UHGV virus genome: UHGV-0301534
Length of the DNA stretch: 19,664 bases
Reading direction: 5' to 3' (one strand)
Origin: a virus
The translations under genes were made by a program, and so were the position numbers. Below, one piece after another: positions 14,835 through 19,664 of the stretch. The number at the start of each line of letters is the position of its first letter. Within the stretch, counting starts at the first letter, position 1. A model generated the notes under the pieces. It was not told the origin of the DNA. It ran no database searches and saw only the letters and a list, made by a program, of their open reading frames with translations.

Positions 14835-15170
14835 TTATTGATTCTTTTTGCACGGAAATGTTTTTCCTACTGCTAGGGCGGTTAGTATAACTGCGCTCTC
14901 ATTTCTTGATTCTGGGTTTTTGTTTAGATATTTCTCAACGATATCGGTGTATTGATACATGTCAACGCCATCAGGAGGACATAGAGAACCAATTAGTATC
15001 AATGAGTCAGTTACTCCGCGCAAATATCCAGTAATGTAAAGCGATGAAAAATCATCACCCTTTTTACCTTGTTGAATGTTGTAAAGAAGGTCATTACCCG
15101 TTTGAAGCTCGCGCAGCTCAGCACTGGAAGAAGAGACAACTGCTAACAAGAACAGTGATAGAAATCTCAT
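14835..15170 (-). CDS. exported protein of unknown function, 111 aa, with signal peptide and two Cys in the mature part
   Basis: N-terminus MRFLSLFLLAVVSSSSA-ELRE is a Sec signal; start codon overlaps the mnt stop (ATGA on the - strand, 15167-15170) with AAGGA 6 nt upstream, so translation is coupled to mnt. Confidence 0.7.
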   Translation of the reverse strand: MRFLSLFLLAVVSSSSAELRELQTGNDLLYNIQQGKKGDDFSSLYITGYLRGVTDSLILIGSLCPPDGVDMYQYTDIVEKYLNKNPESRNESAVILTALAVGKTFPCKKNQ

Positions 15171-15421
15171 TTCAAATCCTTTTCATAAATCTTTTTAAGT
15201 GTCTCAAACACTATAGCCTTGAACTGCTCAGCCTGCTGATCAGCCAAGCGTTCAGCTTCGTCGCGATATCCTGTAATCGGTGATGGTTTTGATAGTGCAT
15301 CCTGAACGATTTGTAATAACTCAGAGTTCATTGACCTTCCGTTAGCCTCGGCTCTTAATTTCAATTTTTCTCTTACTTCCAAAGGCATACGGAAGTTAAA
15401 GTGCGGATCATCTCTAGCCAT
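15167..15421 (-). CDS. mnt: Mnt repressor (ribbon-helix-helix), 84 aa
   Basis: Product MARDDPHFNFRMPLEVREKLKLRAEANGRSMNSELLQIVQDALSKPSP... matches recalled P22 Mnt; the ORF-track 207-aa version is an upstream extension running antisense through arc/ant. Confidence 0.9.
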   Translation of the reverse strand: MARDDPHFNFRMPLEVREKLKLRAEANGRSMNSELLQIVQDALSKPSPITGYRDEAERLADQQAEQFKAIVFETLKKIYEKDLK

Positions 15422-15443
15422 GCCATCACTCCAAGTTAGTGTA

Positions 15444-15472
15444 TTGACATGATAGAAGCACTCTACTATATT
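15444..15472 (+). promoter_or_regulatory. Pant promoter (-35 TTGACA 15444-15449, -10 TATATT 15467-15472) with the overlapping Arc operator (ATGATAGAAGCACTCTACTAT)
   Basis: Sequence matches the P22 Pant/Oarc region as recalled; TAGA...TCTA half-sites between -35 and -10; directly upstream of arc. Confidence 0.7.
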
Positions 15473-15477
15473 CTCAA

Positions 15478-15496
15478 TAGGTCCACGGTGGACCCA
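15478..15496. promoter_or_regulatory. Mnt operator (Omnt)
   Basis: Perfect palindrome GGTCCAC-G-GTGGACC at 15480-15494, matching the P22 mnt operator core. Confidence 0.75.
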
Positions 15497-15511
15497 TATT
15501 GTGAGGTGAAT

Positions 15512-15673
15512 ATGAAAGGAATGAGCAAGATGCCGCAGTTCAATTTGCGGTGGCCTAAAGAAGTATTGGATTTGGTCCGCAAGGTGGCGGAAGAGAATGG
15601 TCGGTCTGTTAACTCTGAGATTTATCAGAGAGTAATGGAAAGCTTTAAGAAGGAAGGGCGCATTGGCGCGTAA
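15512..15673 (+). CDS. arc: Arc repressor (ribbon-helix-helix), 53 aa
   Basis: [53 protein letters not shown], near-identical to recalled P22 Arc; GAGGTG RBS at 15503-15508. Confidence 0.93.
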
Positions 15674-15741
15674 AGTTGAAGCCCCAACTGCGGGAACAGT
15701 CAGGGCTTCGGTTGTCAGTAAATCCGTGGAGAAAAACCAAC

Positions 15742-16644
15742 ATGAATAGTATAGCAATTTTAGAAGCAGTGAACACCTCTTACGTACCATTCAACGGTCA
15801 GCAAATTATCACCGCCATGGCTGCCGGAGTTGCATATGTTGCGATGAAGCCAATCGTTGAAAACCTTGGAATGAGCTGGTCAACGCAGCAAACAAAACTC
15901 ATGAAGCAGATTAGCAAATTCAACTGTGTTCATATGAACATGGTTGCCGCTGATGGGAAGCTTCGTAAGTTACTCTGCCTTCCTTTGAAGAAGTTAAATG
16001 GGTGGCTGTTCAGCATCAACCCTGAGAAAGTTCGTGCTGACATCCGCGATAAACTGATTCAGTACCAGGAAGAATGCTTTACTGTGCTGCATGACTACTG
16101 GACAAAGGGAAAGGCAGAAAATGCACGTAAGAAAACATCTGTTGATGACAGGACTCCGCTTCGTGATGCTGTAAATATGCTGGTCAGCAAAAAGCATCTA
16201 ATGTACCCAGAAGCTTATGCAATGATTCATCAGCGTTTCAATGTGGAAAGTATTGAAGAGCTTGATGCATCTCAGATACCGCAAGCCGTAGAGTACATCC
16301 ACAGGGTAGTGCTTGAAGGTGAGTTCATTGGCAAACAAGAGAAGAAAACCAACGAGCTTTCTGCAAAAGAAGCAAACAGCCTTGTATGGTTATGGGATTA
16401 TGCCAACCGTTCACAGGCATTATTCCGCGAACTGTATCCGGCATTAAAACAAATTCAATCGAACTATTCCGGCAGATGTCATGACTGCGGTTATGAGTTC
16501 TCCCGTATTATCGATATAGCGAGAGACGTTTTAATTAATCACACACGAGATGTTGATATCAATGAGCCAGACGGACCAACGAATCTTTCCGCATGGATGA
16601 GACTTAAGAATAAAGAATTACCTCCTTCAGTACATAATTACTGA
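15742..16644 (+). CDS. ant: antirepressor Ant, 300 aa
   Basis: From the internal ATG at 15742 (GGAG upstream) the product begins [37 protein letters not shown] as in P22 Ant; length 300 aa; the 15676 start is a spurious extension. Confidence 0.9.
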
Positions 16645-16744: not shown

Positions 16745-18844
16745 ATGACAGACATTACAGCCAATGTTGTAGTAAGCATGCCTTCGCAACTCTTCACTAT
16801 GGCGCGTTCTTTTAAAGCGGTTGCCAATGGTAAAATTTATATCGGTAAAATTGACACTGACCCGGTAAATCCTGAAAACCAGATTCAGGTTTATGTGGAG
16901 AATGAGGATGGTTCTCACGTTCCTGTTTCGCAGCCAATCATCATTAACGCCGCTGGTTATCCTGTATATAACGGACAGATTGCCAAATTCGTGACAGTTC
17001 AAAGCCATAGCATGGCTGTGTATGATGCATATGGAGCACAGCAATTTTACTTCTCCAATGTCTTAAGATATTCACCAGATCAGCTAAGATATGATCTTTC
17101 ACAGCCAGATGGCGCGAAATTAGTAGGATTTAAAGACACCAATGTATACGATGCAATAAGCTCAATAAGCGTAGATTTCTCAGCGCTTGGAGAGTCAAAT
17201 GGAGCCACCTTGGTTGGCTATAGGGACAGCACCGTTTATACAGCTCTTGATAGATTATACAGATCGTTAGGAGGCGTGATTATATCTCCTCAATGGAAAC
17301 CAGTTGCAGGATCATCAACTATAAGCTTTTCTGGCGGTCTTTATTCTTTTAATGGCGTTAGTGTTATTGGTCAAAATCAGAATGTCACAACAACATCAAG
17401 CACAATATGTATTGTTGTTAAATCAGACGGAACATATGAAGCGCGTGACAGATATCCATTTGACGGCTCGCTACTTATTGCTCATATTAAATCAGGGACT
17501 CTTATAGAATTAATTGGCAATGCAAATAAAAGTGCTTTTGGAATTGCCGGATGCCCATCATCAATACCATGGTTTCCAGGTGAGCTGAGAAGAATAGAAG
17601 AGCAGATTCCAATTTACTGCGCACTTCGTTCTGATGGCACGCTTAGATATTGGACTGATTATGATGTGGCTGTGAAGAAGGCATCCAGCGGGACAACATA
17701 TTATGTGGACTGCACTAACGGTAGTGATACGACTGGAGACGGCACGCAGGCTAAACCATTCCAGCGTATAAAATATGCCATTGAGAAAACCCCGGCAGCA
17801 AGGACAATCATGATAAAAGGCGGGATGGAATATACCCGTGATTTTACATGGAATGTTAGCGTAGTTGACCGCGAGCTCGATTTCATCGGATACGATGGAA
17901 CACCAATTCTGAGCACTGTTGAACCGGCTGCAACGTGGGCGGCACAGGGAAGCGCTGGCGTATACCAGTACACAGGTAATCTTGTTCTAAACGTTGTTGA
18001 CTATGCCAATCTTGATAGTTATGGACATGCTCAGGTTCTAACTCCCGTAGCCAGCCTTGCCGACTGCGTTTCAACACCTGGCTCATCCTATAAAACAGGG
18101 AATACGCTGTATATTCATCTTTTTGACGGGCGAGCTCCTGATTCTAATTCACGGCTTGTTCTTCAATTGACTAATGGAAGAATTCAGGATAATAGCAAAG
18201 TTTATATTGAAAATATTCACTTTAAGGACAGCTTTAGGGGGTTTCAGGCTGAGGTTCAAACGGCGGGTAAAAAAGGATACTTATATGCAAAAAATTGTAT
18301 ATTTGATTTATCTGTGACAAGGAATGCCTTTAACTCTTTAGGTGTAAACTGTATTATGCAGAATTGCACTGCTCAATACGGGATGCAGGACGCATTTAAC
18401 TATCATGCCGATCAGAATGGTCTTGGGATAAAGCCGTGGTTTATCGAAATTGGTTGTACTGGCCGTTGGAGTGGTTTTGATAATTTACCAAATAATAACG
18501 GCTCTACCGCTCATGACGGAACTGTAGGGATACGTTTGAACGGTGAATACTACGGAACGTTTGGCCGTGTAGTTCACGATGTTCATGATGGCACGGTTAC
18601 AGCTAACTTTGGGTGTTACTCGCATGATAGTTCAAGGGCAGACTTTATCGGTGGCGCCTGCTTTACTGCTGGGCAAGGATCCGACTTAACTGGTAAAGCA
18701 AAGTTATATCTTTATGGATGCAGCCATGGGGGACCTAACGCGTCAATTACAAAAGATGGTTTGAGTGAGGTGTGGATTTTCGATACTCCCATAGGGGCTA
18801 ATGCACAATATACCATCGCTTCTCCTTACACTTTTATTCAATAA
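16745..18844 (+). CDS. 9: tailspike protein: P22 gp9-like head-binding N-terminal domain fused to a non-P22 receptor-binding domain, 699 aa
   Basis: First ~110 aa ([86 protein letters not shown]...) match P22 gp9; remainder does not match the P22 endorhamnosidase domain; GGAG RBS at 16733-16736. Confidence 0.9.
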
Positions 18845-18849
18845 AATGA

Positions 18850-18893
18850 TTGACTGTTGATTAACGCAAACAATACTGTATATAAATACAGTT
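18850..18893 (+). promoter_or_regulatory. SOS-regulated promoter: -35 TTGATT (18857-18862), -10 TATAAA (18881-18886), overlapped by a consensus LexA box TACTGTATATAAATACAGTT (18874-18893)
   Basis: CTGT-N8-ACAG with AT-rich spacer matches the enterobacterial LexA box consensus taCTGTatatatatACAGta; lies 17 nt upstream of the next start codon. Confidence 0.75.
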
Positions 18894-18909: not shown

Positions 18910-19149
18910 ATGATCAGACGTAACGCCATCGCGGAGGCTTTCAGAGCCTCCATTTCTATAAATCCTAAAGGTTATCAATACCTTTACACTGATTCTTTCA
19001 TCTCCGAACTACAGCGGAGGGGTATCCATTTTTCAGAAGAGGAGGCTAACAACTGGATATCAAGAGAGCAGACGTACTTTGTCGACAAAACGGCAGAGCA
19101 TAGCGAAAACAGGCTGTGGATGATGGCCAACATGGGGAGGGTCATCTGA
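18910..19149 (+). CDS. hypothetical small protein (79 aa), first gene of a LexA-box-controlled two-gene operon
   Basis: ATG at 18910 with AAGAG just upstream (the track's 18898 start is a TTG inside the LexA box); stop overlaps the next start (TGATG). Confidence 0.6.
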   Translation: MIRRNAIAEAFRASISINPKGYQYLYTDSFISELQRRGIHFSEEEANNWISREQTYFVDKTAEHSENRLWMMANMGRVI

Positions 19150-19466
19150 TGGCGTTCCCGTCTCCGGCGTCTGACTACGTTGAGCAGCGTCTGTCTGTTA
19201 ACGCGATCTGCAATGTAGGCCCAAACACGCTAGTTTTCGAGCGGTCTGGCGGTTACGTTGTGTTGGATATCTCCCTGAAACCAAGGCAGGGTAGTCAGGT
19301 TCTGATCCAGCACGGCGGCGGGACGGAACTTGCCACGTTGAGAGGGCGGTCGCTGATAACCGAAGACGGCGAAGCGATTGAAGGCGAGGCCCTGGATGAT
19401 ATCACTGTCGCCGGCGTGGTGACACACACCATCATCGATGTGAGAAGTGACAGCGTAGCGGTATAA
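19149..19466 (+). CDS. UmuD'-like (LexA/S24 peptidase C-terminal-domain fold) protein lacking the cleavable N-terminal arm and the catalytic serine, 105 aa
   Basis: From the ATG at 19149 the product begins MAFPSPASDYVEQRL, near-identical to the start of processed UmuD' (GFPSPAADYVEQRI); C-terminus LDDITVAGVVTHTIIDV resembles UmuD LDVFGVVIHVV; the SGDSM active-site motif reads SGGYV. Confidence 0.7.
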   Translation: MAFPSPASDYVEQRLSVNAICNVGPNTLVFERSGGYVVLDISLKPRQGSQVLIQHGGGTELATLRGRSLITEDGEAIEGEALDDITVAGVVTHTIIDVRSDSVAV

Positions 19467-19496
19467 GGCAGGCTTTTTATGTGGCCTGCCGCTTTT
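19467..19496 (+). terminator. possible rho-independent terminator after the UmuD'-like gene
   Basis: GGCAGGC (19467-19473) ... GCCTGCC (19484-19490) stem with a 10-nt loop, followed by GCTTTTG; loop is long so confidence is moderate. Confidence 0.45.
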
Positions 19497-19611
19497 GATT
19501 ACTGTGTCTTTTCGTCCAGCCAGTCCGCCCACCACTGCATCATCTACCTGCGCTTATCGAGATACTGAGCATGGTTGTAAATTCAACTAACCCAGTGCAT
19601 TGACAAAAAAT

Positions 19612-19646
19612 TAGCGCAAGAAGACAAAAAATCACCTTGCGCTAAT
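19612..19646. repeat. 10-bp perfect inverted repeat TTAGCGCAAG / CTTGCGCTAA separated by 15 nt, just downstream of a TTGACA hexamer (19601-19606)
   Basis: Read directly from the sequence; could be an operator or a terminator stem for an element beyond the window end. Confidence 0.4.
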
Positions 19647-19664
19647 GCTCTGTTACAGGTCACT

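Follow-up and report, generated by a model that had tools for sequence, protein, structure and literature searches.

SOS mutagenesis in enterobacteria stems mainly from Pol V, and the checkpoints that limit it include the slow cleavage of UmuD. In work attributed to McLenigan in 1999, HumD of phage P1 reportedly is a functional UmuD' homologue that promotes mutagenesis. The GenBank record of P1 HumD likewise describes a LexA-regulated, pre-processed functional UmuD' homologue, and gp26 of phage N15 is a second pre-processed phage homologue. A pre-processed, LexA-controlled phage UmuD' without umuC has been known since 1999, and the concept itself is not new. In this study, we analysed a stretch of 19,664 nucleotides of the virus genome UHGV-0301534 (the window), which encodes a short protein of this kind. 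Similar to HumD and gp26, it has the M-G-F-P-S-P-A type of start, a LexA box before its unit and no adjacent umuC, and its gene is among the accessory genes of a temperate phage; most of its short family also shares their acidic-Pro-hydrophobic tail, and some HumD-type genes are accompanied by the same 79-aa partner. In contrast to HumD, the protein has 105 rather than about 129 residues, has lost the Ser60 loop (11 residues) and the basic residue at position 97, carries a shorter hairpin after strand 97–101, shares 35% identity and is not detected by the Pfam S24 model. What is new here is the excision of the whole active-site loop, a conserved, coupled partner with a predicted winged helix that public annotation has missed or misnamed, and a conserved acidic-Pro-hydrophobic tail that resembles the C-terminus of UmuC. 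We found no experimental study of the short UmuD'-like family or of its partner in the literature.

Compared with E. coli UmuD' (PDB 1umu, 1i4v), the short protein is not made by cleavage, has no Ser-Lys dyad, is not encoded in a umuC operon and is without the residues predicted to hold the UmuC C-terminus; it also carries a conserved acidic loop, LITxDGEAIEGEALDD, where UmuD' has LxPxNxxYxPI. Unlike the S24 domains of LexA and lambda CI, it has neither the dyad nor a covalently attached DNA-binding domain, and its partner is not similar to the LexA N-terminal domain. The YqjX/YolD-type accessory subunits of Gram-positive Y-family polymerases also have a conserved unstructured N-terminal arm that is predicted to enter a polymerase, with a globular part that is variable or lost (PMC12926913), but their sequences are unrelated and they are encoded beside their polymerase. 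Tum of phage 186 and the Gifsy dinI-antirepressor operons are likewise small SOS-controlled phage genes, and DdrR-UmuDAb likewise pairs a small partner with a UmuD-family protein; no homology to either was detected.

Table 1. Coordinates of the two-gene unit, its signals and nearby prophage features in the window.
Feature	Coordinates	Strand	Remarks
Rap1a/Tai-family gene	14835–15167	−	Immunity protein against type VI secretion effector (PF18602, E 1e-14)
P22-type immI region	15167–16641		
Arc/Mnt-domain ORF	15167–15787	−	206-aa reading probably starts internally
P22 Ant antirepressor	15676–16641	+	P22_AR_N/C
Sigma-70 promoter-like site	18850–18877	+	TTGACT, 16 nt spacer, AATACT; 9/12 in consensus scan
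LexA (SOS) box	18874–18893	.	TACTGTATATAAATACAGTT; 2 mismatches to TACTGTATATATATACAGTA; sole match in the window
Partner gene, 79 aa	18910–19149	+	Predicted winged-helix fold
Perfect 8-bp hairpin	18933–18951		GGAGGCTTTCAGAGCCTCC then ATTTCT; within partner coding region
Shine-Dalgarno of UmuD'-like gene	19134–19141	+	GGGGAGGG; direct reading; within partner-gene end, 8 nt upstream
UmuD'-like gene	19149–19466	+	ATG 19149, TAA 19464–19466; 105-aa product, dyad-less, pre-processed
Intrinsic terminator	19467–19500	+	GGCAGGC...GCCTGCC then GCTTTTGATT; terminator scan

An earlier sequence-only reading of the window had placed this open reading frame at exactly the coordinates given in Table 1, with its start at the N-terminus of UmuD' and no arm left to cleave. 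The relatives agree on this start. M-G-F-P-S-P-A begins at this point in 114 of 120 close relatives and in nearly all distant ones; the cleavable Ala/Cys-Gly site and the N-terminal segment before it are absent, and the first residue is the one after the cleavage site. The ATG overlaps the TGA of the upstream 79-aa gene (TGATG, 19147–19151). Starting at the in-frame GTG at 19116 would lengthen the product by 11 residues, but this codon was rejected as the start because homologues begin at the position of ATG 19149; the extension has no similarity to the UmuD arm and lies inside the partner gene. In this copy, codon 2 (GCG, 19152–19154) encodes Ala, against Gly in 114/120 close and 27/29 distant relatives, and the mature N-terminus would therefore be AFPSPA, compared with GFPSPA in UmuD'. 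The gene is under purifying selection, with dN/dS of 0.07 in comparison with a homologue from E. coli and 0.15 with one from a Klebsiella phage, values that exclude a decaying pseudogene. The protein is acidic, with a net charge of about −7 by hand count, and family column counts reveal a highly conserved acidic loop, DGEAIEGEALDD.

Based on profile alignments, the protein has the beta-barrel fold of the peptidase S24 (LexA/UmuD) family. A phmmer search against UmuD' in the PDB gives E 6e-5 across residues 2–43, and the hhalign alignment of the family profile to E. coli UmuD, with a probability of 98.1 and E 8e-14, covers UmuD residues 25–136. In both the MAFFT and the hhalign alignments, the same 11-residue gap lies over UmuD 58–68 (GDSMIDGGISD), and Tyr36 pairs with UmuD Leu71, not with Ser60. 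The proposed Ser-to-Tyr substitution therefore does not hold, since Ser60 is deleted along with its loop. The loss of the dyad lysine, which had also been suspected, is confirmed: UmuD Lys97 pairs with Ala62 in a column that is Ala or Gly in 25/29 family members, while the next column (UmuD K98) is K or R in 19/29 members and Thr63 here. Neither alignment contains a Ser-Lys dyad, and the description of the protein as catalytically dead is right, with deletion as the route of loss. The C-terminal strand is kept as had been claimed, VAGVVTHTII aligning with VFGVVIHVVK of UmuD. As judged from the alignments, dyad loss is a trait of the whole family and not peculiar to the window copy. Among nine long pre-processed homologues, the Ser60 column holds S in two, T in four, and M, R and D; the nucleophile has decayed in this whole group, and catalytic loss is thus expected once the protein is pre-cut. 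The long HumD-type proteins have a basic residue at position 97 in 8/9 and an acidic residue at position 93 in 8/9.

The UmuD'-like protein has no match to Pfam PF00717 (Peptidase_S24) even at E <= 1, and none of the 29 family members match it at E <= 0.01. The NCBIfam model NF051876 (HumD family) gives 42.8 bits and E 4.5e-11, far under its equivalog cut-off of 120, whereas PHROG 3469 (UmuD-like protein) gives E 7.1e-44, with residues 1–102 aligned to positions 1–102 of the 106-position profile. These profile scores indicate that PHROG 3469, a short phage family, is the protein's own family.

The expectation of SOS control was correct in that a LexA box is present, but the box precedes the 79-aa gene by 34 nt and does not directly precede the UmuD'-like gene. 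No LexA-box match arose in 200 shuffled sequences (0/200). The box overlaps the −10 element of the promoter-like site, and the operator is almost identical to the tight E. coli umuDC operator. Most related loci also have a TGATG or TAATG stop/start overlap, and its recurrence indicates translational coupling. From the position of the box and the gene overlap, the UmuD'-like gene is thus the second in an SOS-controlled, coupled pair. The terminator, with an 8-bp stem of 6 G-C pairs and a T-rich tail, begins directly 3' of the stop codon, its stem-loop occupying 19467–19490, and closes the unit. The stretch from the tailspike stop at 18844 to the promoter-like site contains nothing terminator-like, so read-through from the late operon would be possible. 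The hairpin within the partner coding region also scored as terminator-like; it may be a chance structure or an attenuator.

The 79-aa partner is confidently predicted to fold as a winged helix. Against PDB structures, it gives only generic winged-helix matches, and its one significant match among BFVD structures is itself a member of the partner family. No Pfam family, LexA_DNA_bind included, matches any of 17 partner members, and no NCBIfam model matches the partner; together with an hhalign probability of 0.1 against LexA, these results led us to reject homology with the LexA N-terminal domain. A hand count from its sequence puts the charge of the partner near neutral, and few basic residues are visible in its third helix, usually the recognition helix of such a fold. 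Its C-terminus reads ...MGRV(I/L/F/M) and is followed by M-G-F-P-S-P of the next gene, whereas a second partner clade ends in NPNGG(L/F). Four longer proteins that suggested natural fusions of the partner to UmuD' (P0188, P0143, P0241, P0261) look like frameshift or deletion artefacts. Some partner members carry the names "DNA polymerase V" or "putative invertase" at NCBI, and in the GenBank record of mEp390 the partner is unannotated, with a 42-aa ORF called on the opposite strand instead.

The genes of the window identify it as the morphogenesis half of a P22-like prophage. The tailspike carries the P22 head-binding domain (PF09008, E 4e-65), and the best phage matches are P22-like. The Rap1a/Tai-family gene is a moron situated where the DNA-ejection genes give way to the immI region. 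The most similar genome is that of E. coli STEC346, which shares the right end of the window, with 99.3–99.7% identity over the unit and 98.5% identity across 63% of the window's last 5.7 kb. Its prophage ends about 600 bp further on, shortly after the unit, at the lambda att site adjoining ybhB-bioA, and its repressor carries PF00717 (59 bits); this prophage shares only the right end, and the immunity region of the window's own prophage lies outside the window. The end of the window, ...CTGTTACAGGTCACT, is presumably the start of the lambda attP P arm, and the unit therefore lies att-proximal in the phage genome, the usual place of a moron. The last 155 nt (19509–19664) match more than 2900 E. 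coli records and include a short remnant that is annotated as a truncated pseudogene in STEC346. As had been noted, the window contains no umuC. None lies in the flank of the nearest genome before the prophage ends, and none is annotated in the rest of the STEC346 prophage; an ordinary umuD with umuC just beyond the window was rejected on this ground. A PADLOC scan for defence systems gave no match, and a defence or anti-defence system was rejected.

The family is widespread in temperate phages of Enterobacterales. It is matched by 359 clusters at 90% identity, mostly from Klebsiella, by 185 representatives at 50% identity, and by 113 phage records from Klebsiella, Escherichia, Enterobacter, Erwinia, Pantoea and Cronobacter. 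Matches occur in 176 of 5426 complete E. coli genomes, and 64 genomes contain 80% or more of the unit. Whether the context is lambda-like, N15-like, P22-like or myovirus (baseplate-type), the gene lies between tail-fibre or tailspike genes and int/attP, and at other loci the next gene is int or a host gene. We surveyed 25 loci that carry a pre-processed UmuD' gene. All 25 have a CTG-N10-CAG box roughly 30–60 nt (mostly 32–45) before the first gene of the unit, none has a phage umuC (0/25), and 16 have the 79-aa gene directly upstream, usually with the TGATG/TAATG overlap. The partner also precedes a long HumD-type gene at four loci (L021, L033, L053, L090). In contrast, at 55 loci with an ordinary, arm-bearing umuD, umuC follows immediately downstream. 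A umuC stands beside the short form only at L015 (3971–6155) and L052 (764–4216), from Enterobacter vonholyi and an uncultured Pantoea-like genome, where a complete chromosomal umuDC lies next to a degenerate short copy; at L052, umuDC lies between the partner gene and the short remnant. In mEp390 (L006, 1909–2821), the unit and a dinI homologue diverge from an 86-bp spacer that contains one LexA box, an arrangement also seen for lxr-humD in P1.

The C-terminus of the family is also conserved. In 27 of 38 full-length representatives, the chain ends in P-(x)-hydrophobic-COOH, and in 28 of the 38 an acidic residue followed by Pro occurs within the last seven residues. Tails such as DDCPVI, DDIPIM and DDLPVM-COOH are found in most phage pre-processed UmuD' proteins, long and short (examples span P0129–P0251, L004, L005 and L090). 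These tails resemble the UmuC C-terminal consensus, [DE][LI]Px[VA][KR]-COOH over 46 loci, whereas chromosomal UmuD has no such tail; they also resemble the tip of SSB, DDDIPF. The tail of the window copy (19434–19463) ends without Pro in DVRSDSVAV, the form of its clade being DVRSDS(L/V)A(V/I).

We favour, tentatively and with a probability of about 0.4, the reading that the protein serves as a ready-made UmuD' surrogate, engaging host UmuC once LexA is inactivated. Inactivation of LexA would allow transcription of the two-gene unit, and the 79-aa winged-helix and 105-aa UmuD'-like proteins would be made together through the TGATG overlap. Once the initiator Met is removed, the chain would begin with the N-terminus A/G-F-P-S-P-A, equivalent to the product of RecA*-stimulated cleavage of host UmuD. 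The protein retains the UmuD' beta-barrel and the C-terminal strand that forms part of the dimer interface in UmuD', and would presumably dimerise; it needs no protease site because there is nothing to cleave. Its conserved N-terminal arm would then insert into host UmuC to give a Pol V-like translesion complex with no delay for the slow conversion of UmuD to UmuD'. Such a complex would help the copying of damaged phage and host DNA while SOS and the prophage are induced, comparable to Weigle reactivation, and the partner protein may contribute.

Several observations argue for this surrogate. Of the ten family columns that are invariant or nearly so, six fall in residues 1–7 (M-G-F-P-S-P-A), and D9, Y10 and E12 are also kept; as the protein has no protease site, this conservation cannot serve recognition of a cleavage site. 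Of the targets proposed earlier, UmuC/Pol V, RecA filaments and the beta-clamp, UmuC is the best supported on the alignments and published models; the beta-clamp motif of UmuD, TFPLF (residues 14–18), lies in the arm that this protein never had. In an AlphaFold model of Pol V, one UmuD' arm enters the cleft between Palm and Little finger of UmuC, N-terminus first, and work cited there describes armless UmuD' as non-mutable (PMC11791011). Such an arm is the only feature shared by the accessory subunits of Y-family polymerases in Gram-positive bacteria (PMC12926913). It is the conservation of the arm, the Pol V model and the precedent of HumD, which belongs to the same phage clade, that lead us to favour the surrogate. 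Moreover, the shared tail motif [DE][DE]xP[VI][IM], the 79-aa partner and the LexA box indicate that the short form derives from HumD, and the near-identity of the operator to that of umuDC is a further argument. Some points count against the surrogate. In the Pol V model, the C-terminal carboxylate of UmuC is held by S36, T71, K73 and E69 of UmuD', which are S60, T95, K97 and E93 of UmuD (PMC11791011). At these cleft positions, the UmuD'-like protein has A62/T63 and G57, and the short family has deleted the Ser loop, so one of the two predicted contacts with UmuC is gone. Furthermore, Ala2 replaces an almost universal Gly, where single-residue changes at the UmuD' N-terminus affect mutagenesis according to a report cited in PMC11791011, and the HumD equivalog score is far below its cut-off.

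The missing cleft is also the starting point of an opposite reading, in which the protein antagonises Pol V as a decoy and its UmuD'-like N-terminal arm, dimer strand and UmuC-like tail occupy UmuC. We consider this unlikely, yet the decoy is a serious rival because the cleft elements are lost in the short family while HumD keeps the charges at 93 and 97; that is, the residues predicted to bind the UmuC tail are lost in the short family only, and the long HumD-type proteins keep the basic residue at 97. Without the cleft in which the UmuC C-terminus is anchored, no productive mutasome would form. In a variant, also doubtful, the protein heterodimerises with host UmuD or UmuD' or caps it, and the phage might in either case, with similarly low probability, suppress error-prone synthesis on its own replicating DNA. 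The tails (27/38 and 28/38 by the two patterns) fit this reading, and since removal of 1–3 C-terminal UmuC residues is reported to abolish Pol V function (PMC11791011), competition there would be potent. However, the likeness is short and the spacing after Pro is off by one residue, the tail of the window clade has no Pro at all, and HumD, the sole tested relative, is reported to promote mutagenesis and not to block it. It is also possible, although we rate it as unlikely, that the pair provides no Pol V cofactor and that the winged helix and a dead UmuD'-like dimer form a two-chain SOS complex, acting either as a LexA-like, DNA-binding regulator that cannot be cleaved or as a decoy whose UmuD' arm plugs host UmuC and whose UmuC-like tail caps host UmuD'. 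If a decoy were true, the phage would switch host mutagenesis off during its own replication.

A role in DNA binding or regulation in place of a polymerase cofactor seems quite improbable to us. Here, the winged helix and the S24-type dimerisation domain would amount to an already cleaved LexA or CI in two chains or, with as little likelihood, the 79-aa protein would be an SOS-triggered antirepressor or regulator with the UmuD'-like protein as its accessory, comparable to Tum of 186 and the Gifsy dinI-antirepressor operons or to DdrR with UmuDAb. The junction of ...MGRV(I/L/F/M) and M-G-F-P-S-P resembles ...VGRVAA/GEP of LexA, and the two genes are translationally coupled and co-inherited, with a confident winged-helix prediction for the partner. 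In addition, LexA-controlled antirepressors exist in Gifsy phages (PMC9879122), and the mEp390 unit shares its LexA box with a divergent dinI. Against this stand the hhalign probability of 0.1 for the partner and LexA, the 0/17 members that match LexA_DNA_bind or another Pfam family, the near-neutral charge with few basic residues in the third helix, and the NPNGG(L/F) end of the second clade. Fused proteins occur only as apparent artefacts, and P1 and N15 have the UmuD' gene without the partner. The closest prophage also has an S24-containing repressor (PF00717) and a P22-type Ant, so no further SOS antirepressor would be needed there, and the window itself encodes P22-type Ant and Mnt. It is very unlikely that the dead S24 domain binds in the groove of the RecA* filament and, like DinI, influences how LexA, UmuD or the phage repressor is cleaved. 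The C-terminal domains of UmuD and LexA do bind this groove (PMC9926225), and the acidic charge, the conserved acidic loop and the dinI neighbour in mEp390 are in keeping with such a role. In the cryo-EM structure, however, the pocket that receives RecA F203 is built from UmuD Y52, V54 (printed "L54") and F94 together with F18 of the second subunit, and D91 and E93 are contact residues as well (PMC9926225). By hhalign, Y52, V54 and F94 become L28, F30 and T58, D91 and E93 become G55 and G57, and F18 falls in the absent arm; RecA filaments, one of the targets proposed earlier, are accordingly less likely because their docking residues are not kept. Finally, the notion of an ordinary UmuD with an upstream start and a umuC beyond the window, or of a decaying pseudogene, is close to untenable: GTG 19116 could add 11 residues, but the starts of the homologues, the att end at ybhB-bioA, the umuC survey and the dN/dS of 0.07–0.15 are all contrary.

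The module is present in many Klebsiella genomes and in about 1–3% of complete E. coli genomes. A UmuD' look-alike that is already cleaved would bypass or block the UmuD cleavage checkpoint in lysogens exposed to DNA-damaging antibiotics. Moreover, the family is a natural experiment on UmuD', in which the active-site loop is dispensable and the first seven residues are not, a pattern that agrees with recent models that make the N-terminal arm the key polymerase contact. The conserved 79-aa partner, with its predicted winged helix, is a candidate new player.
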